Assembly (NCBI GenBank): GCA_963810095.1
Contig: CAWEMM010000012.1
Location: forward strand, 384,001-448,000
Direction of reading: 5' to 3'
From: an uncultured Chloroflexia bacterium
GTDB lineage: Bacteria > Chloroflexota > Anaerolineae > CG2-30-64-16
Length of the DNA: 64,000 nt
Below are positions 46,634-57,143 of the stretch, piece after piece; the stretch's first letter is position 1; the number at the start of each line of letters is the position of its first letter. Under the pieces are notes generated by a model. The model was not told the DNA's origin, ran no database searches, and saw only the letters and a program-made list of their open reading frames with translations. A program made the translations under genes and the position numbers.

Positions 46634-47038
46634 TCAGTTCTTCGACTGCGTCAGGTACTGCGCGCGGCGCACCCACCCGTTCACCATTGCGAGCGCAGGA
46701 ATGCGCCCGACGAGTTTCTTCTCTTCGTTGACCTTGTTCAACCGCTCGCGAAGATCCTCGGGTTTGACCAGGGCAAGCTCTTCGGCGCTGTGCACGCCCA
46801 CCTCTTCGAGGAGCACGATGTAGGCGTCGCCGATGCCGCGTATGCGTTCGAGGTCGGCCCGGTGGACGATGGTGACGAGTTGGTCGGGGGCCACCCCCGT
46901 CGCCACGGCCAGCTTCTCCACGCCATTGTTATCGGCGCAGGCTGCCAGCAAGTCGTCCGTGTACTTAATCCCGTAAGCTTTCAGGCGGGCTTCGGAGGCG
47001 TCGTCCATGCCATAGAGTTTGTTCAGCATCATCGTCAT
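46634..47038 (-). CDS. DUF4332-like helix-hairpin-helix protein
   Basis: ADLERIRGIG...LLEEVGV...ELA...P...W; AAGGAG SD. Confidence 0.75.
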   Translation of the reverse strand: MTMMLNKLYGMDDASEARLKAYGIKYTDDLLAACADNNGVEKLAVATGVAPDQLVTIVHRADLERIRGIGDAYIVLLEEVGVHSAEELALVKPEDLRERLNKVNEEKKLVGRIPALAMVNGWVRRAQYLTQSKN

Positions 47039-47069
47039 CGGTGGGGCTCCTTCAACTTGTCGTGACTCG

Positions 47070-47098
47070 ATTCTACAGAAGTTGCCCCGGCGGCACAA
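47070..47098 (-). promoter_or_regulatory. Sigma70-type promoter of the DUF4332 gene
   Basis: TTGTGC-17 nt-TAGAAT on minus strand. Confidence 0.5.
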
Positions 47099-47122
47099 CG
47101 GGAGCCCTCTCTATTTCTAGGT

Positions 47123-47149
47123 AAAATAAAGACCGCCTTAAGGGCGGTC
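47123..47149 (-). terminator. Intrinsic terminator ending the GH3/two-component operon
   Basis: GACCGCC-CTTAA-GGCGGTC-TTTATTTT on minus strand. Confidence 0.7.
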
Positions 47150-47200: not shown

Positions 47201-47860
47201 TCAGCCTCCGGGCGGCGTCACCAGCCCCTCGCGCATCGCATAGAGTGCGGCCTGTGTCCGGTTCGAGAGCCCCAGTTTGTCGAGGATGCGGCTGATGTGG
47301 GCCCCCACGGTCCGTTCGCTGATGGCCAGCAGCTCGGCGATCTCGCTGTTCGAGTGACCCACCGCCACCAGCTTCAGCACCTCGATCTCGCGGTCACTTA
47401 ACGGCTCGTCGGGCCTTGCGACGGGTGTGTTCGAGCGGTGCACCTGGCGCACCAGCTTTTGCGCCACGTCAGAGCTGAGGGATGGCTGGCCCCGGCTGAC
47501 GTTCTTGATCGCGTCGAGCAGCTCCTCCGGCGAGCAGTCCTTGAGCACGTAGCCCAGCGCGCCGGCTCGTACGGCCGCAAAGACCCGTTCATCTTCGGAG
47601 AAGCTCGTCAGGACCAGGATGCCGGGCGCGGGCTTGAGCTTTTTGAGAGCCGGGATCGCGGACAGCCCATCGGCAACGGGCATCGACAAGTCAAGCAGCA
47701 CCACATCGGGTTGCAGTGCGCGGGCGCGCTCGAGGGCCGACTCACCGTTGTCTGCCTCACCGACAATTTCTATTTCGGAGGTAGTCCGCAGCAGTGAGAT
47801 AAGGCCCTTGCGCACCAATCGGTGGTCGTCGACGACCAGCACGCGAATCATGTGGTTCAT
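47201..47860 (-). CDS. NarL/LuxR-family response regulator
   Basis: VDDH, LDLSMP, LSDREIEVL, SNSEIA, ISERTV, NRTQAA. Confidence 0.95.
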   Translation of the reverse strand: MNHMIRVLVVDDHRLVRKGLISLLRTTSEIEIVGEADNGESALERARALQPDVVLLDLSMPVADGLSAIPALKKLKPAPGILVLTSFSEDERVFAAVRAGALGYVLKDCSPEELLDAIKNVSRGQPSLSSDVAQKLVRQVHRSNTPVARPDEPLSDREIEVLKLVAVGHSNSEIAELLAISERTVGAHISRILDKLGLSNRTQAALYAMREGLVTPPGG

Positions 47861-49056
47861 GCTCCGCCCCCTAACTCCGGTTCCTGACTCCCGACGGCAA
47901 ACCGGTCGATCCGAAGCGTCACCGTGGTCCCCCGGTGCGGCTCGCTGCGGACCAGGACGCCTCCACCCAGGCGTGCGGCGCGTTCCTGCATGCCCACGAG
48001 GCCCAGGCCGCCGCTCCGAATGACCGTATTTTGATCAAATCCGACGCCATTGTCAGCCACTGCCAGGATCAGCTCGTTGCCCTGTGTGCACAACTCAACC
48101 GACACTTCCGTCGCCCGCGCGTGCTTGAGGGAGTTATTAAGGGCCTCCATCGCAACCCGGTAAGCGCCTTCTTCGGCCGCGGGCGACAACAGCAATTCGG
48201 CAGGCGCGATCAATGTCGCATGCACCCCGGCGCGCAGTTCGACCGCGTCGAGCCGGTAGCGCAGTGCTGCGGGCAGGCCGCCATGGTCCAACAGCGGCGA
48301 CCGCAGTTGGTACAGCAGCAGCCGCAGGTCCTTCAGCGCCTGCCGGGCAATCGCTTCGACCTCGCCCAGCGTCTCGTCGATGGGCGGCGGTGCGCCGTGC
48401 TGGGCAGCAGAGCGGGCAGCCTGGGTGGTGAAGATCAGGCTGAAAATCGACTGCGTGACCGAGTCGTGGATATCCTGCGCCAGCCGCCGGCGCTCCTCCT
48501 GCACGGCCGCCCGCTCGGCCTGGGCGCGTTCCCGTGCCGCGATCTCGAGGCGCAGCTTTTCGTTGACGACGGTCAACTCTTCGTTCAGCCGCACGAGCTC
48601 GGTCGTGCGCTCTGCCACCCGCGTCTCGAGCTCATTCTGATGGCTCCGCAACTGCGCCTCGTCGTCCCGCAGTTTCTTCTCCACCCGATGGCGGTACAGG
48701 GCAATTTCAATCGTTATGTTAAGTTCGCGATCTTCGAATGGCTTGATCACATAACCGAAAGGCTGTGAGATCCGTGCCCGCTCGATGGTCGCCGGGTCTG
48801 CGTAAGCCGTCAGAAAGACGACGGGGAGGTCATACTCGGCAATGATACGCTCGGCGATCTCGATACCCGACGCCGAGCCTCTCAGGCGTATGTCCATCAG
48901 CACGATGTCCGGCTTCGAAGCAGCCACGATGGCCAGCGCCTCCGCGCCGGTAAACGCGGGTCCGGCCACCTGGTAGCCCATTATGCCCAGCCGGTGCTGG
49001 ATGTCGAGCGCGACGATGCTTTCGTCCTCGACGACCAAGACGGTTGTCCCTGGCAT
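47857..49056 (-). CDS. Hybrid REC-coiled coil-HisKA_3/HATPase histidine kinase
   Basis: VEDE, MDIRL, KPF receiver; ERRRLAQDIHDSVTQ H-box; EALNNSLKHA, DNGVGF, GLVGMQER. Confidence 0.9.
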   Translation of the reverse strand: MPGTTVLVVEDESIVALDIQHRLGIMGYQVAGPAFTGAEALAIVAASKPDIVLMDIRLRGSASGIEIAERIIAEYDLPVVFLTAYADPATIERARISQPFGYVIKPFEDRELNITIEIALYRHRVEKKLRDDEAQLRSHQNELETRVAERTTELVRLNEELTVVNEKLRLEIAARERAQAERAAVQEERRRLAQDIHDSVTQSIFSLIFTTQAARSAAQHGAPPPIDETLGEVEAIARQALKDLRLLLYQLRSPLLDHGGLPAALRYRLDAVELRAGVHATLIAPAELLLSPAAEEGAYRVAMEALNNSLKHARATEVSVELCTQGNELILAVADNGVGFDQNTVIRSGGLGLVGMQERAARLGGGVLVRSEPHRGTTVTLRIDRFAVGSQEPELGGGA

Positions 49057-49123
49057 GGCAAGTCCATTCTTCGTTACGTTCATCTCAAACATCAATTCTT
49101 ACAGACCATCCTTACGGTCATCA

Positions 49124-51202
49124 TTACGGAGCTTCCGGGTGAAATGACACCAGGAAGCGAGTGCCTGCGCCGTTGGTAATCTCCAGCGACCCGTCCAGTT
49201 GCCTGACGAGCCCGCCCACCAGTTGCATGCCCAGGGTGTTTGGCTCCTTCTTCTCACCCGTCACAAAGCGCGGCATGCCAATGCCGTCGTCGGAGACCTC
49301 CAGCTCGACCTCGCCGCCCGGCGCACTGCAGATGCCGACGCGCAGGACGCCCTCACGCCGGCCCACAAAAGCGTGCTTGAGCGCGTTCGCGATGAGCTCG
49401 CTGGCAATCAGCGCGCAAGGCAGCGCGGTGTCCAGCGGCAGGCGGATCGGCGCCGTGTTGACAATCAGGCGGACCGACCGGTCGCCCGTCGCATAAGAAC
49501 GGTGCAGCTGGGCCGACAGGGTGCGCAAATACTCGCCAAAGTCGATGTCCGCCAGGTTCTCCGACTGGTACAGCTTCTCATGAATGAGCGCCATGGAGCG
49601 GATCCGATTCTGGCTGTCGCGCAGCACCTCGAGTGTGCCCTGGTCGTAGGCGTACTGCGCCTGCAGGCTGAGCAAGCTGTAAATTACCTGCAGGTTGTTC
49701 TTCACGCGATGGTGAATTTCTTTGAGCAGCACTTCCTTCTCGTGCAGCGACTCGAGCAGGCGTTCTTCGGCGCGCTGTTGTTCGGCAAGCTGCTGCTGAA
49801 CGGTCGCGTACAGGCGTGCGTTCTCGACCGCTACGGCCGTTTGATTGGCCAGCGTCATCAAGACAGTCTCATCGTCCGTGCCGTACTCGACGCCAGAGCG
49901 CTTCTGCCCGACGGCCAGCAATCCAACCAGCGCGCCCTTGGTCGTCACCGGCACGAGGAGTTCGGCGCCCAACTGCTCCCACCGTTCACGCTCTTCCAGG
50001 CGAAAGGCACGCGCCAATGGCAGGCGATCCAGCTCCCGCGCCGCAAAAACCTCGTTGTGCGCGGTGAGGTGCGTGATCAGGGGGTGATCTGCACGCAGCC
50101 GCCACTTGGCGCCCTGCACCGGCAAGTTCGCCTCCATGCCCCGCTCCGCGGCAACGTCGTAGCCCCCCGTTGAGTTTTTGAGATAGAAAACCGCCCGCTC
50201 GATATGCATCGTTTCGCAGACTTCGGTCACGATCATCTCGGTCAACGTCCGGGCGTCGAGCAGGGCCGCCGAATTGGCGCTCACGCGTCGTAACATCTGC
50301 GACGCGTCGTACTTGTCGCGAAAGAAGAGCTTGTCGACCCTGGCCTGCATCACATCCCGCAGGGGCTGGACGAGCACCGCAGCGACCGCGGCCAGGACGA
50401 CCGACAGGAGGAACACCTGGTAGCCCGCCACAAGGTGGAGCACCTGCACGGCCAGCGACACCAGGAGGAAGTAGACCGTCCCGACGATCACGGTCGTGAT
50501 CGAATAACGCAGACCTCGCCGCAGGACGAGTTGGATGTCAAGCAGCCGGTAACGCAGGATGGCAAACGCGACCAGCGCGGCGTTCGCCATGTTTGTCATT
50601 GCGTCGATGGGGTATGCGCGCAGCGCCGGGCTGAAGTTTGCCACGCTCCCCAGGATGACGAGCGGTACCCCGATAATCAGGTAGGTCAACCGGTTGCGCT
50701 CGTTCGGCGAGGTAGTGGTTCGCCAGCCGCGCAACAGATACACGAACGCGTAGGCCAGGTAGAGCCACACCGCGAGGCCCAGGACGACCGCGACCACGCC
50801 TAGATTAGGGAGAATCAGCGCCGTATCAGGTTCGGTGTAGACACCCGAGATCACCTCGGGTCCGTCCAGGAAGGTGTAGAGGGGGGCTGCTAGAACGACA
50901 GCGTACCCCAGCGGTACGAGCCAGCGTGCGGTCTTGATATCCAGCAGCTCGCGCACAAACAGAGCATAAAAGAAGCCAAGCGATACGGCGAAGGCCGCCA
51001 CCAGCCGGTAACCGGTCACGGCAACGTCGGGGTCCGTCGTGAAGGCAACGATGGTGTAGCCCGCCTGCCAGATCGTCATGCCGATCAGGTACAACAGAAA
51101 ATAGCGCGCTGCGGGCCGGCGGCGGGCACGCTTGAACACGAGGGCGATGAGGGAGGCGTAGCAGAGCAGGGCGAGGACGCAAACTGCTTGTACTGCCGTC
51201 AA
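49124..51202 (-). CDS. Membrane sensor histidine kinase (HisKA_7TM-like multi-TM, GAF, HisKA_2, HATPase)
   Basis: About 9 hydrophobic helices; GAF ...TLANQTAVAVENARLY; EIHHRVKNNLQ; DDGIG; AGGAGG before TTG start. Confidence 0.9.
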   Translation of the reverse strand: MTAVQAVCVLALLCYASLIALVFKRARRRPAARYFLLYLIGMTIWQAGYTIVAFTTDPDVAVTGYRLVAAFAVSLGFFYALFVRELLDIKTARWLVPLGYAVVLAAPLYTFLDGPEVISGVYTEPDTALILPNLGVVAVVLGLAVWLYLAYAFVYLLRGWRTTTSPNERNRLTYLIIGVPLVILGSVANFSPALRAYPIDAMTNMANAALVAFAILRYRLLDIQLVLRRGLRYSITTVIVGTVYFLLVSLAVQVLHLVAGYQVFLLSVVLAAVAAVLVQPLRDVMQARVDKLFFRDKYDASQMLRRVSANSAALLDARTLTEMIVTEVCETMHIERAVFYLKNSTGGYDVAAERGMEANLPVQGAKWRLRADHPLITHLTAHNEVFAARELDRLPLARAFRLEERERWEQLGAELLVPVTTKGALVGLLAVGQKRSGVEYGTDDETVLMTLANQTAVAVENARLYATVQQQLAEQQRAEERLLESLHEKEVLLKEIHHRVKNNLQVIYSLLSLQAQYAYDQGTLEVLRDSQNRIRSMALIHEKLYQSENLADIDFGEYLRTLSAQLHRSYATGDRSVRLIVNTAPIRLPLDTALPCALIASELIANALKHAFVGRREGVLRVGICSAPGGEVELEVSDDGIGMPRFVTGEKKEPNTLGMQLVGGLVRQLDGSLEITNGAGTRFLVSFHPEAP

Positions 51203-51237
51203 TGCATGACCTCCTGTGCCATAGGGGCTGCCTGCGG

Positions 51238-52878
51238 TTACGGAGCCGCGTGACCACCCTTGGCCACGCCGTCGCTAAGCGCCAGCAACCGCGTCATCGT
51301 GCTGTCGCCGGGTTGCATCCGCGGCGGCTTGAGATGACCCAACTCGGCGCCTTCCTGCCGCTTAACCTCCATATAAGCCTTGAAAGTCCCCGGTGTCAAG
51401 CGCGTGACCCGCACGGGATTCCGGCCCGTGATGCCGAACGTCGTCTTGTAGTCGTCCATCGTATCGATGAGCGCGCCGTGCAGATCAGTGGCGAGGTTAC
51501 TGCGAGATCCGTTCGCCGACTCCAGGTACACGTGTACGACGGGGCCCTCGGCCGGGCTGACTTCCTTGCGCGCAATCCAGTCCGTCATGGGAAGGTCAAG
51601 GTGAGCGAATGCCTGCCACAGCGAGCGCTCGGTCAGCATGACCATGGAGCCCAGGTCGATCAGGTCATCCGCGCGAGACTCCACGACAATCTGTGGCAGC
51701 TTGATGTCCAACTCGGGATCGCTCGTGCTCACGACCCGGATCAAGTCGCCCAGGAAGTAGCGAACAAAGACGCCGCCCAGCAGGCTGGTCCCGATCAACA
51801 CGTAGCGCCCCGGCTGGAGCTCGTCCGTCAGACACGTATGCGGCTGGTACGAGCGGTCGTGCCGCCAAACCTGGTATTCGCTCTCGGGCATGAACTCCCA
51901 GAAGGCCGTATCGGGCGAGAGGATTTTGCCCTTGGAGCGGCCCCCCCAGCTCTGCACTGCGACCCCGCCGAACTCCGTGCAGCCGTAACCGTCGAAGACG
52001 CGTGCGCCCCAAAGCGCTTCGATAGGCTTCCGGTAGGCTTCGACATCCATGCCGCCGACCGTAATCCCCTTGGGGCTCCAGAAGTGCTTCGGTTGCAGCG
52101 GCTCCTTGCGCAGCTTGCTTCTCAGCAATGCGCGCCCCATGCGGGACATGGCCCGGGGCTTCAGCATGTCGCCCGAGAGGCGCATGCTGCCCGATCGCTT
52201 TGAAAAGGACTCGCCCATGGCCAGGAGCACCGAGCCGATGCCCAGAAAGTAGTCGATTCCCGTATCCATTGCCAGCGTGAATGCCCGCGACATGCGTTCC
52301 TGGAACTCCATCGCCTCCGCTTCCTCGATCTCGGGGACAAAGCGGAATGGGAATTCATCGCGGCCGGCGCGCAGGATCGTGCCCGACAGGTAGGGCGGCG
52401 GGGCAACGGTGTAAAGGTAGACGTCGCCCTCAGAAATGTTGACATCCCCGTGGTGCCGCGCGCCCGACAAGATCTGGCAACTGAGGAAGTAGCGCCCGAG
52501 GCTTTCGTAGAAAGCCTTGGGCACGGGAACCCACTTACAGGCAAACTCCCCGGTGCGCCCCGAGGTCCGCACCCAGGTCACCGGCTTGGCGGGCAACACG
52601 TCGTCTCGTTGTTCGGCCAGTTCCGGCAGGTAGTCGTGGTAGGTGGTGACCGGCACCAGCCGGCGAAAATCCTCGACAGTGGCAGGCTTCTGGCTGTGGA
52701 GCAATCGCCGCCCCAACTCCGAGCCCTGCAGCAACTCCAGCTGCTCGAGCAGCAACCGGCGCTGGATGTGCATGAACTCATCCAGAGACAGCTCCACGTG
52801 ACCGCAGTAAGTCTGCCAGATCTCTGCCGTGCGCCCCTGGCGCAGCAGATCTGCCGCCTTTAGCGTTGCGCTCCCCAT
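51238..52878 (-). CDS. GH3-family (auxin-responsive-like) acyl-adenylate/amide synthetase
   Basis: FRRLVPVTTYHDY; motif I RTSGRTG...K; motif II YGCTE; motif III RYFLGD; C-terminal KPPR. Confidence 0.82.
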   Translation of the reverse strand: MGSATLKAADLLRQGRTAEIWQTYCGHVELSLDEFMHIQRRLLLEQLELLQGSELGRRLLHSQKPATVEDFRRLVPVTTYHDYLPELAEQRDDVLPAKPVTWVRTSGRTGEFACKWVPVPKAFYESLGRYFLSCQILSGARHHGDVNISEGDVYLYTVAPPPYLSGTILRAGRDEFPFRFVPEIEEAEAMEFQERMSRAFTLAMDTGIDYFLGIGSVLLAMGESFSKRSGSMRLSGDMLKPRAMSRMGRALLRSKLRKEPLQPKHFWSPKGITVGGMDVEAYRKPIEALWGARVFDGYGCTEFGGVAVQSWGGRSKGKILSPDTAFWEFMPESEYQVWRHDRSYQPHTCLTDELQPGRYVLIGTSLLGGVFVRYFLGDLIRVVSTSDPELDIKLPQIVVESRADDLIDLGSMVMLTERSLWQAFAHLDLPMTDWIARKEVSPAEGPVVHVYLESANGSRSNLATDLHGALIDTMDDYKTTFGITGRNPVRVTRLTPGTFKAYMEVKRQEGAELGHLKPPRMQPGDSTMTRLLALSDGVAKGGHAAP

Positions 52879-53615
52879 GTTTCAAAGCTCCGGTCGGGAT
52901 GGTTGGCACGAGCCACGATCAAGATGCCGGGCGGATACCACTGCCGGCGAGCGGGAAGAATGGTTTCCCCTGTGGGCGTAAAGCCGGCCTGGGCCACTTC
53001 CTGGCGCCATTGGTCCGGCGTCCGCATGTTAGCCAATGAGTCCTTCTCAGCCGCGCTGCGCGTTGGGTCTTCACGCCGGGTATACCACCACGCCAGCACA
53101 CGCAGCACGCGCCGCCCGATGGGCGTGCACCACAGGGATGCTAAAGCCACATCGGCAACCAGCAGTTGCCCACCCGGCCGCAGCACCCGGCGCATTTCTG
53201 CAAGCAGGACGGCCAGCCGCATGTGGTGGGTAGCGAGGACGCACACGGCCGTGTCGAAAGTTCCGCTGGCGAATGGGAGCTGCATGCCCGAGCCGCACGT
53301 CAGCCTCACAGACGCGGGCGAGCCCGCATCGACCAATTTCTCTTCAGCGCTGCGAAGCATACGGGGGGTAATATCCAAACCAACCACCCGTCCGCGCCAC
53401 TCATCGCGCTCAACCAGTGCGAGTGGAATGACTGCTTGCCCGGTGGCTACGTCGAGCACTGCGTGCGCGTGCTCCAGGTCGAGACGGCCGAGCAGCATCT
53501 CGACGAGCCTGCGATAGCCGATACCCCAGAATTCCCGCAGCTCGCGATCGACCGTCTCCTCGTAGTGAGGCGCCATCTCGGTGAAGGCGTCGACGATGAC
53601 CTGGTTTTCGCTCAC
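52860..53615 (-). CDS. Class I SAM-dependent methyltransferase (UbiE-like)
   Basis: VLDVATGQA, VGLDITPRML, LPFASGTFD, EMRRVLRPGG; overlaps the GH3 start. Confidence 0.88.
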   Translation of the reverse strand: MSENQVIVDAFTEMAPHYEETVDRELREFWGIGYRRLVEMLLGRLDLEHAHAVLDVATGQAVIPLALVERDEWRGRVVGLDITPRMLRSAEEKLVDAGSPASVRLTCGSGMQLPFASGTFDTAVCVLATHHMRLAVLLAEMRRVLRPGGQLLVADVALASLWCTPIGRRVLRVLAWWYTRREDPTRSAAEKDSLANMRTPDQWRQEVAQAGFTPTGETILPARRQWYPPGILIVARANHPDRSFETWGAQR

Positions 53616-53724
53616 GGGGCACCTGGAAACACGCGGGTAACAGCGCGGCTAGTCATACTGATGATACGATAAGACCAGTGAAAGTGCAACATCGCACCAC
53701 GCGTGGAAAGGGGACTTGCCGATG

Positions 53725-53753
53725 AAAAAAGACCGGCAGGCAGCCGGTCTTTT
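53725..53753. terminator. Bidirectional intrinsic terminator at the end of the sugar operon
   Basis: AAAAAA-GACCGGC-AGGCA-GCCGGTC-TTTT. Confidence 0.8.
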
Positions 53754-53778: not shown

Positions 53779-54813
53779 CTAGTCTCGCAGCAGATGATCC
53801 AGGATCAGCCAGTCCAGTTCCTCGTAATCGCGGGCGGCGACGAGTTGCTGGACGCGCGTCCGATCAAGCGAGCGGCTCAGCTCTACCAGCCGCAGGAACA
53901 TCATGATCGAGTTGCGCAGATGCTTGGTGGCCAGCGCGGCGGGCTGCGTACGCAGCGCCTTAACGTCCAGGCCTACCATGCCCACGTTTGAAAAGTGGTT
54001 CTCGTCCAGAACCCGCACCTGGTTGAACGCCCGGCGGATATCGACCGCCCCAAACGAGCGATCCTGGTCGAACTTGAGCCCGTTCTGGTCGTTCAGGTGT
54101 ACGCTCCACAGCTTACCGAACGCCATCGCGTAGCCGATTTCGTCAGAGGGATCCAGCCCCGCCAGAATCGAGTGGGCGGATTCCATCAGCACGCCGACCC
54201 GCTTCGGGTCGTCGCTCTGGAAGCCAAGCGCGAGCGCGTGGCCCATCGTGGGGATGTACGCGAGATCCATCGGCTCATTCGGCTTCGGCTCGATGATGAT
54301 CCGAATGTGCTTGTCATAGCCCAGCAGCGCATTGACGGCTTCGAGCAGGTAGTGCGTCGAGCGGACGACGTCCTTGCTTTCGCGCATGTAGGTGCCTTCG
54401 CGCGCGAGCCAGAGAACAATCAGGTTGCAGCCAAGCTCGCGCGCGATGTCCGCGCACTGCTTGGTGCGGTCGACGGCATAGCGGCGCTCTTCCGCGTTGT
54501 TCGAGGTATAGCCGCCGTCGATCGTGCGCGGGTTCTCCCACAGCCGAGGTGCCACAAACTCAGCCACCAGGCCGTGATCTTCCAGCATCTGGCGCACCTG
54601 GCTGGCTGCCCGGCCCACCTGGGTTGGGGAGAGCTCGTCCAGGTTGGGGACCGCGTCGTCGTCATGGAACTGCACCGCGTCAAAGCCCAGTTGCTTGTAC
54701 AGCGGCAGCTTCTGGGCAAACGCCAGCCCCGGCCGAACCTCAGGCCCGAACGGATCCGCTCCCTCGTGAATGTTCCAGGGACCAAAGGAAAAGCGATAGC
54801 CGTATTTCTCCAT
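53779..54813 (-). CDS. Xylose isomerase-like protein (class I-like)
   Basis: FSFGPW, ADPFG, FHDDD, EPKPNEP, HLNDQ, FDQD. Confidence 0.8.
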   Translation of the reverse strand: MEKYGYRFSFGPWNIHEGADPFGPEVRPGLAFAQKLPLYKQLGFDAVQFHDDDAVPNLDELSPTQVGRAASQVRQMLEDHGLVAEFVAPRLWENPRTIDGGYTSNNAEERRYAVDRTKQCADIARELGCNLIVLWLAREGTYMRESKDVVRSTHYLLEAVNALLGYDKHIRIIIEPKPNEPMDLAYIPTMGHALALGFQSDDPKRVGVLMESAHSILAGLDPSDEIGYAMAFGKLWSVHLNDQNGLKFDQDRSFGAVDIRRAFNQVRVLDENHFSNVGMVGLDVKALRTQPAALATKHLRNSIMMFLRLVELSRSLDRTRVQQLVAARDYEELDWLILDHLLRD

Positions 54814-54844
54814 GCTGCTCTCCTCGACGGGGAATATCCGGCCG

Positions 54845-54925
54845 ACCACCAAGTCACCAAGACACGAGGCTACACCAGGGCTTTGCGGGCCGTTGTGCAG
54901 GGTTGTGTCTTCGTGTCTTGGTGGT
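54845..54925. repeat. 8-nt-period inverted-repeat element
   Basis: ACCACCAAGTCACCAAGACACGAGG...GTGTCTTCGTGTCTTGGTGGT. Confidence 0.6.
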
Positions 54926-54933
54926 CGACGCCG

Positions 54934-56127
54934 CTAGTACTTCAAGTCGACGGTCCGGCGCTCGCTGGCCGATTCCACGATGCCGTCGCAGACGACCGCA
55001 TTGCGGTAGCCGTCTTCGAAGTCCGCGGCGAGCGGCGCCACGTCCTTGTTGTTAACGATGCAGTCGAGCAGGTGGTTGATTTCGTGCACAAAGCTGTGCT
55101 CCCACCCGATGATGTGGCCGTGGGGCCACCAGTTGCCGATCCAGGGATGATCCCCTTCGGTCACGAGCACCCGGTGCCAGCCCTGGGTTGCCTTAGGATC
55201 TTCGCCGACCCAGAAGACTTCCAGCTCGTTCATGCGCTCGAGATCGAAGCGGATGGACCCCTTCTCGCCGTTGATTTCCCAGCAGTTGTAGTTCTTCCGC
55301 CCGGCGGCGAAGCGGCTCGCCTCCAACGTGCCGATCGCGCCGTTCTCGAACTCGAACGTCGCGGCGAACGCGTCGTCCACGTCCACTTCCCACGGGGTAC
55401 CATCCGGCAGGTAGCGAGTCGGGATGAAGGTCTTGGTCATGGCTTGCAAGCTCTTCACCTCGCCGCACAGGAACCGGCTCAGGTCGATGATGTGCGAGCC
55501 CAGGTCGCCCAGCGCGCCGCTGCCCGCGACCTGCTTGTTCAGGCGCCAGATCTGCCCCGTGTCGTAGTGGGGCATGATCCATTCCTGCAGGTACACCGCC
55601 CGGAAGTGATAGATCTTGCCGAGCTTGCCCCCGGCGATCAAGTCGCGCGCCAGGCGAATGGCGGGCACGAAGCGATAGTTGTGCGCGACCATGTGCTTTA
55701 CGCCGGTCTTCGCCACCGCCTGCCACATCTCGTAGCCTTCCGCCGCGGTGCGCGAGAGCGGCTTCTCGCACAAGACATGTTTGCCGGCCTGCGCTGCGGC
55801 GATGGTCGGCTCCGCGTGCATGTCGCCCGGCCCGCCGTTGTCGAAGAGCTGAACTTCCGGGTCCTCGATCAGCTTGTGCCAGTCGGTGTAATAGCGGTCG
55901 TAGCCGAAGCGCCGGCACGCTTCCGCGACCCCTGCTTCGTTCCGTCCGGCAATCGCGACCAGGTGGGGCACCGCAACCGGCGGGTACATCATGTACGGCA
56001 GCTTCTTGTATGCGTTCGAGTGCGCCTTGCCCATGAACGCGTAGCCGAGCATGCCGACGCCGACGGTCGGGGCCTCTTCTGCGCCGCCCGTCGCAGCCAT
56101 CTTCGTAAACGACTGTCCTTCCGCCAT
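54934..56127 (-). CDS. Gfo/Idh/MocA oxidoreductase (levoglucosan/glycoside 3-dehydrogenase-like)
   Basis: GYAFMGKAHS, CEKP, NYRFVPA, YLQEW, GALGDLGSH. Confidence 0.85.
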   Translation of the reverse strand: MAEGQSFTKMAATGGAEEAPTVGVGMLGYAFMGKAHSNAYKKLPYMMYPPVAVPHLVAIAGRNEAGVAEACRRFGYDRYYTDWHKLIEDPEVQLFDNGGPGDMHAEPTIAAAQAGKHVLCEKPLSRTAAEGYEMWQAVAKTGVKHMVAHNYRFVPAIRLARDLIAGGKLGKIYHFRAVYLQEWIMPHYDTGQIWRLNKQVAGSGALGDLGSHIIDLSRFLCGEVKSLQAMTKTFIPTRYLPDGTPWEVDVDDAFAATFEFENGAIGTLEASRFAAGRKNYNCWEINGEKGSIRFDLERMNELEVFWVGEDPKATQGWHRVLVTEGDHPWIGNWWPHGHIIGWEHSFVHEINHLLDCIVNNKDVAPLAADFEDGYRNAVVCDGIVESASERRTVDLKY

Positions 56128-56138
56128 GGTGTTCTCCT

Positions 56139-57143
56139 TCAGTCTTTCGAGGCGAACGCAGCGTCGAAGAGCACGTCCGACGGCGCAAAGTCGAGCTTCT
56201 TCACGAACGCAGCGGCCTCGGTTGCGCCGTGCTCTCGATCCATATTGCCGTCTTCCCACTCGACCGAGAGCGGGCCCTGGTAGCCGATGCTGTTCAGCGC
56301 CCGGATGATGCCCTCGAAGTCGATCCGACCGCGGCCGAGCGAGCGGAAGTCCCAGAAGCGCCGGGCATCGCCGAAGTTAAGATGCCCGCCGAAGACGCCC
56401 GCCTCAGTGGGCACGGACGACCACCACACATCCTTCATGTGGACGTGGTAGATCCGGTCCGCGAATTTGCGGATGAACCCGACGTAGTCGACGCCCTGGT
56501 AGCCGAAATGGCTCGGATCATAGTTGAACCCGAACGCGGGATGATAATCCAGCGCCTTGAGCGCGTTCTCGGCGCTTGCAACGTCGAAAGCGATCTCGGT
56601 CGGGTGGACTTCCAGTGCATACCGGACGCCAACTTCCTGGTAGCAGTCCATGATCGGCTTCCACATCTCGGCGAAGAACTTCAGGCCCTTCTCAAGGTAG
56701 TCCGCGGGGTTGGGCGGGAAGGAGTAGACCATGTGCCAGATGGGCGAGCCGGTGAACCCCGGCACCACCTTGAGCCCCATCTTGGCCGCGGCGATCGCAG
56801 TGTTTTGAATCTCTTGCGCCGCCCGGCGCCGCACGCCGTCTTCCTTGCCGTCACCGTAGATGCGTGGGGGCAAGATGCTCGCATGTCGCTCGTCGATCCG
56901 ATCGCACACAGCCTGACCCACAAGATGCGCGCTGATCGCATAGCACTGCAGACCGTACTTGTTCAGGATGTCCCAGCGTCCGCGCACATAGGCGTCGTCC
57001 TCGAGCGCCTTGTCGACTTCGAAGTGATCGCCCCAGCACGCGATTTCGACGCCATCATAACCAAACTGCTTGGCCTTCTGGCAGATGGTTTCGAACGGCA
57101 GATCGGCCCACTGGCCGGTAAACAAAGTGACAGGTCGTCCCAT
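56139..57143 (-). CDS. Sugar phosphate isomerase/epimerase TIM barrel (AP_endonuc_2)
   Basis: [34 protein letters not shown]. Confidence 0.85.

Follow-up and report, generated by a model that had tools for sequence, protein, structure and literature searches.

A GH3-family enzyme gene paired with a 7TM-GAF sensor gene in an operon of an uncultured Anaerolineae bacterium and in related Chloroflexota

We analyzed a 64,000-nucleotide (nt) stretch of the genome of an uncultured Anaerolineae bacterium (assembly GCA_963810095.1, contig CAWEMM010000012.1, positions 384,001 to 448,000; hereafter, the window), in which five minus-strand open reading frames (ORFs) fill positions 47201 to 53615 exactly. 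In operon order, they encode a predicted S-adenosylmethionine (SAM)-dependent methyltransferase, a GH3-family protein, a sensor kinase with several transmembrane (TM) helices, a second kinase carrying a receiver, and a NarL/FixJ-type regulator. The first three genes are a conserved Chloroflexota signaling cassette, in which the GH3 gene is accompanied by a seven-transmembrane (7TM)-GAF sensor input module even where the output of the sensor differs. The successive genes are joined by a 19-nt overlap (the methyltransferase stop runs this far into the GH3 start), a 35-nt gap, a 28-nt gap, and a 4-nt overlap between the second kinase gene and the regulator gene. An earlier note on this DNA had described five co-oriented, tightly spaced or overlapping genes between two terminators, and both the coordinates and the two stems were reproduced here.

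Judged from their layout, the five genes are a real operon; sequencing runs found to contain this DNA were nine of the DNA type, from five studies, and none of RNA. Upstream, a sugar-gene operon ends in an intrinsic terminator on the minus strand (53725..53749), which was read directly from the sequence as a 7-pair stem (53749-53731) with a T6 tail (53730-53725) and appears as a 5-pair stem in an automated scan; it lies 30 nt past the stop of a xylose-isomerase-like TIM-barrel gene (53779-54852). The operon's own intrinsic terminator (47121..47149, minus strand), 51 nt past the regulator stop codon, has a 7-pair stem with 6 G-C pairs and a T-rich tail. Both assignments rest on position and quality, not on enrichment, and terminator-like sites are not enriched over the whole region (8 found versus 5.9 expected). 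A candidate promoter on the minus strand (53661..53689), consisting of TTGCAC, a 17-nt spacer, and TATCAT, lies some 45 nt ahead of the start of the methyltransferase gene. It scores under the threshold of a consensus scan, and the pattern TTGC(A/C)(C/A)-N17-TA...T aligns in four of six same-genus upstream regions (those of the window, G004, G007, and G001).

The second gene (51238..52878, minus strand) encodes a 546-amino-acid (aa) protein that we predict, from its domains and motifs, to be a GH3-family ATP-dependent acyl-acid amide synthetase. Against a Pfam cutoff of 23.6 bits, the models of the N and central GH3 domains scored 47.2 and 25.3 bits, respectively, and the C-domain model fell slightly short (21.0 bits); most relatives have all three GH3 models in their precomputed annotation. 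The three adenylation motifs that the earlier note had read in the protein (TSGRTG..K, YGCTE, and RYFLGD) were all found, and residues S106, G107, K115, Y298, E302, R373, Y374, D378, and K517 were invariant among 15 aligned sequences with 36 to 68% identity. These bacterial motifs align onto SSGTSGG..K, Y..SE, YRxGD, and the C-terminal K-x-P-R lysine of the plant enzymes GH3.12, JAR1, and GH3-1. An alignment-profile search of all solved structures returned plant GH3 enzymes as its 10 top matches (E values of 2e-16 to 3e-11) and a phenylacetate-CoA ligase as the sole further match (E value of 1.9e-4); by this comparison, the protein is closer to GH3 than to other adenylate-forming (ANL) enzymes. 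The plant enzymes (JAR1/GH3.11, GH3.12/PBS3, and the auxin-conjugating ones) thus share with it the Pfam family, motifs 1 to 3, and the C-terminal lysine, whereas the similarity is distant and lies mostly in the C-terminal half, and the plant genes do not stand beside receptor genes. The gene is the only GH3 match in the window genome.

The third gene (49124-51202, minus strand) encodes the sensor kinase, in which Pfam identified HisKA_7TM, GAF, HisKA_2, and HATPase_c domains. Its membrane part (residues 1 to 293; 50324..51202, minus strand) has nine predicted TM helices, and the HisKA_7TM match (PF16927; residues 9 to 223) scored 43.5 bits against a cutoff of 28.6; the same family was matched in distant GH3 partners. 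A cytoplasmic GAF domain (residues 316 to 461; 49820..50257, minus strand) was recognized by the Pfam models GAF, GAF_2, and GAF_3 and by Foldseek similarity to solved GAF domains, and the output part (49124..49720, minus strand) by HisKA_2 (107 bits) and HATPase_c (39.5 bits). An H-box histidine can be recognized in the translated sequence, and the best NCBIfam match of the kinase core was PhyK (142.6 bits versus a cutoff of 750). The multi-TM sensor kinase of the earlier note was borne out, as were GH3 and HisKA_7TM in the type of hidden Markov model search that it had proposed, with the GH3 N and central domains and HisKA_7TM all above their Pfam cutoffs. In the portions of two reviews that were consulted, HisKA_7TM is given as a sensor domain without a ligand.

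An AlphaFold2 model of sensor residues 1 to 480, built from 30 aligned sensors, had a mean predicted local distance difference test (pLDDT) value of 84.6 and contained nine membrane-length helices, a linker helix, and the GAF domain. Our reading of the charge distribution would place the N terminus outside and the GAF domain inside, and conserved cytoplasmic stretches include an ERNR..YL loop and an RYQLLDI segment. Since a Foldseek search with the 480-residue model gave matches to GAF domains alone, the membrane part was folded separately (pLDDT, 84.6; predicted template-modeling score, 0.74) and compared with 48,161 chains by using VIA-align. The 50 best matches were all G protein-coupled receptor (GPCR) folds, natural or designed, with 194 to 225 residues aligned over model residues 1 to ~225 at root mean square deviations of 3.4 to 5.2 Å and Z scores of 16.6 to 13.2, values to be read against the Z of about 14 that helical bundles can attain through arrangement alone. 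For this reason, the model suggests a GPCR-like arrangement of the first seven helices, not homology.

The methyltransferase of the first gene (52860..53615, minus strand; 251 aa) is of the class I UbiE/Methyltransf_11-25 type (Pfam Methyltransf_11, 69 bits). All of its NCBIfam matches were far under their cutoffs, and its best matches among solved structures were unrelated natural-product and sugar O-methyltransferases with E values of 1e-10 or weaker, which are uninformative about the substrate. The fourth gene (47857..49095, minus strand) encodes a 412-aa REC-HisKA_3-HATPase kinase (Pfam Response_reg, HisKA_3, and HATPase_c). The earlier note had called it a hybrid kinase; it is indeed a kinase with a receiver, but because the receiver is N-terminal, it should be called a REC-kinase fusion, not a classical hybrid. 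The best NCBIfam match of this receiver was the PhyR family (96.5 bits versus a cutoff of 240). The last gene (47201..47860, minus strand) encodes a 219-aa NarL/FixJ-type regulator, as the note had proposed, with a receiver (Response_reg, 95.8 bits) and a GerE helix-turn-helix (71.1 bits); at 174.8 bits against an NCBIfam NarL cutoff of 250, it is not the NarL equivalog itself. None of the five operon proteins reached an NCBIfam equivalog cutoff. Phospho-acceptor histidines and aspartates of all three signaling proteins were seen in the translations.

To follow these genes across genomes, we used two samples, nearly all of whose related loci derive from metagenome bins. Among 41 genomes of relatives (the window's own counted in), 13 had a GH3 match (10 full-length and 3 weak and partial), and nine foreign loci with full-length GH3 were fetched for neighborhood reading. 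When species-representative genomes were scanned with the GH3 protein, 662 relatives were returned, and we kept the best 80, which correspond to 78 loci; their records are nearly all labeled Anaerolineae or Dehalococcoidia. Counts of spread refer to Chloroflexota, and the other-phylum labels of five loci (L047, L087, L080, L078, and L090), in whose genomes GH3 was confirmed, are those of the submitters alone. A profile of the first 480 sensor residues was run on all ORFs of the 78 loci. At least 300 nt of downstream sequence was required for a GH3 locus to be assessed, which 73 of the 78 loci provided (the remaining 5 were not assessable). A maximum-likelihood tree was computed from 78 GH3 proteins (73 loci, the window, and 4 loci from the relatives), with L032, L045, L059, L079, and L092 left out because their GH3 ORF was cut or split. 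More broadly, GH3 was matched by 749 protein clusters among 8000 scored candidates and, at an E value of ≤1e-30, by 29 of 401 genomes in an even sample of the phylum (27 of 322 high-quality genomes), including 9 of 9 genomes of one family of small genomes (1.4 to 1.9 Mb). In the window's genus, five of seven other genomes had a match.

A homologue of the 7TM-GAF part of the sensor directly followed GH3 in all nine of the fetched foreign loci, at GH3 identities down to 36%; in one of them, only the first 72 sensor residues precede the contig end. In the larger sample, such a sensor lay on the same strand after GH3 in 71 of the 73 loci with room: directly in 66, with a methyltransferase gene in between in 4, and behind a second GH3 gene in tandem in 1, leaving 2 loci in which GH3 had no adjacent sensor. 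The median gap in the 66 direct cases was about 36 nt, and 35 of the gaps were 40 nt or shorter. On these counts (9/9 and 71/73), we reject chance adjacency of the two genes.

The outputs read with Pfam from 69 sensor tails were far more varied. GGDEF plus HD-GYP was found in 20 sensors, HD-GYP in 18, a HisKA kinase with or without PAS, GAF, or REC in 15, a HisKA_2 kinase (in the window's genus) in 4, a HisKA_3 kinase in 4, GGDEF in 3, and PAS-GGDEF-EAL in 1, with 4 tails cut or without a match; one further relative's sensor has a STAS output. On the GH3 tree, the output class switches at least 10 times (63 labeled rows). There are at least seven interchangeable outputs, of which the window's kinase, second kinase, and NarL-type regulator together are one. 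All four same-genus loci with room retain the REC-HisKA_3 kinase and the NarL-type regulator, which are confined to this genus-level version of the cassette. Judged from these comparisons, the conserved partner of GH3 is the sensor input module (7TM-GAF), not the kinase; the GH3-kinase linkage that the earlier note had expected in Chloroflexota therefore held as a linkage, with a different partner. Because transcription is not what most of these outputs control, the link must be more than that of a regulator next to its target, and its persistence through repeated output replacement, with outputs that are mostly not transcription factors, places the coupling at the sensor input.

Several loci depart from the simple arrangement. 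L053 (4276-12196) and L098 (4353-12128) have the order sensor(GGDEF)-methyltransferase-GH3-sensor(HD-GYP), with two paralogous input modules per locus that are 42% and 47% identical, respectively, and with opposite cyclic di-GMP (c-di-GMP) outputs on the two sides, and in L084 two HisKA sensors surround one methyltransferase-GH3 pair. In L030 (3346-11744), two complete GH3-sensor cassettes stand one after the other, the first with its GH3 split into two ORFs, and L033 (7995-13660) has two tandem GH3 genes ahead of one sensor. In the same-genus genome G001, the GH3 and sensor genes are broken by frame changes and stops: at L023 (G001:C23, 1200-7600), the GH3, sensor, and second-kinase genes are split among frames, with TGA stops within the GH3 and sensor matches, and the methyltransferase and regulator at the flanks read through. 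Either the cassette is decaying at this locus, or the assembly is poor. Distant 7TM-GAF paralogues (28 to 32% identity) occur without GH3 in several genomes.

The gene upstream of GH3 varies among loci. A class I methyltransferase was found in 45 of the 78 loci, in 41 as the gene immediately before GH3 and in 4 as one inserted ahead of the sensor, after GH3. In 12 loci, its place is taken by a membrane protein of ~190 aa with a conserved G-T-Y-A-L-V-R-H-P-G segment (Pfam PEMT in all 12, DUF1295 in 8, and ICMT in 5), so that a methyltransferase of either type stands beside GH3 in 57 of 78. Another 16 loci, of the Dehalococcoidia type, have no methyltransferase and carry instead a winged-helix HTH_45 gene and an ORF of ~105 aa upstream (for example, L088, 1200-1870, an arrangement shared by 15 similar loci); the ~105-aa ORF had no Pfam match, and its N terminus looks ribbon-helix-helix-like. 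The last 5 loci showed none of these gene types or lacked upstream room. The upstream-gene type switches at least six times on the GH3 tree (72 labeled rows). Because of the 16 loci without one, the methyltransferase, usual but not universal, is an accessory and not a core part of the cassette. The exchange of a soluble methyltransferase for a membrane enzyme of the phospholipid/isoprenylcysteine type suggests, in turn, that the methyl acceptor is probably lipophilic.

Other neighbors vary by lineage. In L065, a beta-ketoacyl synthase gene lies between the HTH_45/~105-aa ORF genes and GH3. A clade of six to seven loci with HD-GYP output (noted at L052, 6397-8517; L095, 6389-7156; L054, 5296-6381) has CoA-transferase subunit genes upstream and a gene resembling ADP-forming acyl-CoA synthetases downstream of the cassette, flanks that may hint at organic-acid metabolism or be merely lineage-specific synteny. 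In the window, a DUF4332/helix-hairpin-helix gene (46634-47098, minus strand) follows the operon terminator, a placement shared by all four same-genus loci that have room there. The upstream neighbors (53779-56259, minus strand) encode the xylose-isomerase-like TIM-barrel protein (identified with Pfam) and a 441-aa ORF with a putative GFO-type label; in L019 and L023, two loci of the same genus, homologues of one or the other adjoin the cassette.

To our knowledge, bacterial GH3 enzymes are numerous, and OlsH is the only one with a demonstrated function. According to the portions of the source paper on which we drew, OlsH, a GH3-like enzyme of Singulisphaera acidiphila, forms N-acyl ornithine from free fatty acid and ornithine with ATP and Mg2+, yielding product only in extracts to which free fatty acid was added, and olsH shares its operon with olsG, which encodes an N-methyltransferase, and olsI, which encodes an alpha/beta-hydrolase O-acyltransferase; the same portions place bacterial GH3 homologues mainly in Bacteroidota, Pseudomonadota, and Planctomycetota (PMC12493201). 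The text of that paper has zero mentions of Chloroflex-, Anaerolin-, Dehalococc-, kinase, or sensor (PMC12493201). The olsH-olsG-olsI operon is the closest characterized precedent for the window genes: both have a GH3-like gene beside a SAM methyltransferase gene, both enzymes keep the GH3 nucleotide-binding motifs, and the activity predicted for the window enzyme is likewise ATP-dependent amide formation from a free acid without coenzyme A (CoA) or acyl carrier protein. The window operon differs in having a 7TM-GAF sensor gene in third position and no OlsI-type acyltransferase.

Three signaling systems invite comparison on the sensor side. The rpf/diffusible signal factor (DSF) system of Xanthomonas comprises the acyl-CoA ligase RpfB, the synthase RpfF, the multi-TM sensor kinase RpfC, and the HD-GYP regulator RpfG. 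As in the cassette, an adenylate-forming enzyme, here one whose substrate is a fatty-acid signal, is encoded beside a multi-TM sensor, and signaling ends in HD-GYP c-di-GMP turnover, which is the commonest cassette output; unlike the cassette enzyme, RpfB is of the FadD type rather than GH3, and the sensor families are unrelated. LuxN-type receptors are nine-helix kinases with the N terminus outside, which bind N-acyl homoserine lactone in the membrane domain, and the nine helices predicted in the window sensor resemble them by description, not by sequence. The layout thus recalls quorum-sensing loci, as the earlier note had suggested, but a search of the five operon proteins with Pfam found no synthase domain of the LuxI or LuxM type and no RpfF-type crotonase. 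Finally, the PEP-CTERM/exosortase-associated kinase PrsK (TIGR02916) shares a multi-TM HisKA_7TM-type N terminus, a GAF domain, and a kinase with the sensor (match over residues 10 to 645), which at 62.1 bits against a cutoff of 300 is not a member; Pfam identified no exosortase genes in the operon. In the literature that we searched, no paper connects any of sensor kinases, HisKA_7TM, HD-GYP, Chloroflexi, or Dehalococcoides with a GH3-like enzyme, and no description of the GH3-sensor pairing was found. The recurrence of this pairing across Chloroflexota points to a small-molecule signaling cassette that is as yet undescribed.

The best explanation that we can offer, and one on which we find ourselves evenly balanced, has the enzymes making or modifying a lipophilic molecule of the acyl-amino-acid type, which is read by the sensor encoded next to them. 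A molecule of this type is favored because of the methyltransferase evidence and the OlsH precedent. The GH3 enzyme would join a carboxylic acid, probably lipophilic (fatty or other acyl), to an amine, probably an amino acid, with ATP, and the methyltransferase would tailor the GH3 enzyme's molecule; a methylated N-acyl-amino-acid-type product is plausible by analogy. Because the coupling sits at the sensor input, the simplest account would have the GH3 substrate or product as the sensor ligand, read via the GPCR-like seven-helix membrane domain, the cytoplasmic GAF domain, or both, possibly with GH3 docked on the sensor's cytoplasmic face during reading. By comparison with known systems, the enzymes could serve either signal generation, as JAR1 does in making jasmonoyl-isoleucine (JA-Ile), or quenching, as RpfB does in consuming DSF. 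In the window, a phosphorelay may run from the HisKA_2 sensor kinase through the PhyR-like receiver of the REC-HisKA_3 kinase to the NarL-type transcription factor, an order proposed because of the domain types and because the best NCBIfam matches, both under their cutoffs, were PhyK (kinase core) and PhyR (receiver).

Several points weigh against this explanation. It starts from the observed gene order, domain content, GH3 membership, and GH3-sensor linkage across changing outputs; from these we infer the substrate, the product, the ligand, whether the enzymes make or remove it, any secretion or quorum-sensing role, the sequence of phosphotransfer steps, and the genes under control. OlsH and OlsG are likened to the window proteins by operon layout and description, not by sequence, and the order list of OlsH homologues with at least 30% identity, in the part of the source on which we drew, does not include Chloroflexota (PMC12971839). 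The GPCR-like Z scores and the Dehalococcoidia-type loci without a methyltransferase, both described above, count on the same side. GH3 is followed by a ketoacyl synthase in L096, with no adjacent sensor, and in L048 the sensor lies 4.8 kb upstream, with none adjacent to GH3. G011 has a close sensor (629 bits to the sensor model) without GH3 beside it, and a search of this genome, which is 80% complete, with the window GH3 as the query found no GH3.

If the two enzymes instead served membrane-lipid remodeling, their product, like that of OlsG and OlsH, would be an N-methylated aminolipid, and the sensor would read the envelope state or bulk lipid as feedback. The olsH-olsG-olsI operon yields trimethylornithine lipid (PMC12493201), and OlsG is kin to phospholipid N-methyltransferases (PMC12971839), each according to the portion of the source consulted. 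The PEMT-like membrane enzyme that replaces the class I methyltransferase in 12 loci also fits a lipid product, as do the ketoacyl synthase genes beside GH3 in L065 and L096 (two loci tested by Pfam), a gap of ~1.7 kb upstream of GH3 shared by L074, L086, and L094, whose content was unscanned, and a nine-helix membrane domain suited to reading lipid composition. However, no OlsI-type alpha/beta-hydrolase or other acyltransferase was found in the operon or in clusters conserved in at least six loci, so the product would be an N-acyl amino acid with one chain only, which makes a poor bilayer lipid. Generic envelope-stress sensors do not usually stay beside one enzyme across 10 or more output swaps, and 16 loci carry no methyltransferase at all. 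We consider lipid remodeling unlikely.

Alternatively, GH3 could act as a co-sensor or trigger enzyme, its catalytic state (acid, amine, and ATP supply) being passed to the sensor by contact, or it could modify the sensor covalently, with no free ligand in either case. The tight or overlapping spacing of the genes, including the 35 of 66 gaps of at most 40 nt, and the strongly conserved cytoplasmic loops of the sensor (ERNR..YL and RYQLLDI) would suit such contact. A complex prediction for GH3 residues 8 to 530 with sensor residues 1 to 470, made with our own alignments and therefore only approximately calibrated, scored 0.40 (runs of 0.40, 0.34, and 0.46) versus 0.00 for the best of three controls, with contact agreement of at least 86% and partner pLDDT values of at least 71. 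Of 157 solved complexes, 116 reach the mark used for this score, as do 2 of 215 mismatched pairs; just 18 of the 157 solved complexes lie at 0.60 or lower, together with both mismatches that pass, and a score in this range is more often wrong than right unless the pairing is likely beforehand. Given the strong prior from gene order, the score is a modest push toward direct contact, for which the modeling lends weak support, in the signaling explanation as well as in this one. On the other side, the prediction returned no interface and weak passes are often wrong, and no fused GH3-sensor protein was found among proteins of 957 to 2730 residues, weak evidence that tells against the signaling explanation as well. 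A related sensor exists without GH3 in G011, and we know of no GH3 or ANL enzyme that modifies proteins. The co-sensor is thus, in our judgment, no more probable than lipid remodeling and no less.

That the two-component genes lie beside two biosynthetic genes by chance, or only regulate their transcription, would fit the window layout taken alone, which is also that of a regulator beside its target operon, but is highly improbable given the adjacency in 71 of 73 loci from two classes at GH3 identities down to ~36 to 40%, the c-di-GMP or STAS outputs, rather than transcription factors, of most partners, and a deep, well-supported GH3 tree that speaks against the recent transfer of a single mobile block.

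Returning to the explanation in which the enzymes make or modify a molecule read by the sensor, the strict genomic pairing gives the GH3 enzyme and the sensor each a candidate partner. Plant GH3 enzymes make or unmake receptor ligands, and a GH3 conjugate can itself be the ligand, as is JA-Ile. If the explanation is true, a bacterial GH3 wired to a receptor gene would be an instructive parallel to the plant enzymes. Since c-di-GMP enzymes form the output end of most cassette versions, the ligand would identify a control input of c-di-GMP in these bacteria. We advance more tentatively, and with some doubt, the wider proposal that Chloroflexota, including Dehalococcoidia, use an unrecognized class of self-made signal, GH3-built and often methylated, of the N-acyl-amino-acid type, with a dedicated GPCR-like/GAF receptor and swappable outputs. 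If true, the cassette would represent a new synthase-receptor family for cell-cell or membrane-borne signaling, feeding into two-component, c-di-GMP, or partner-switching outputs.

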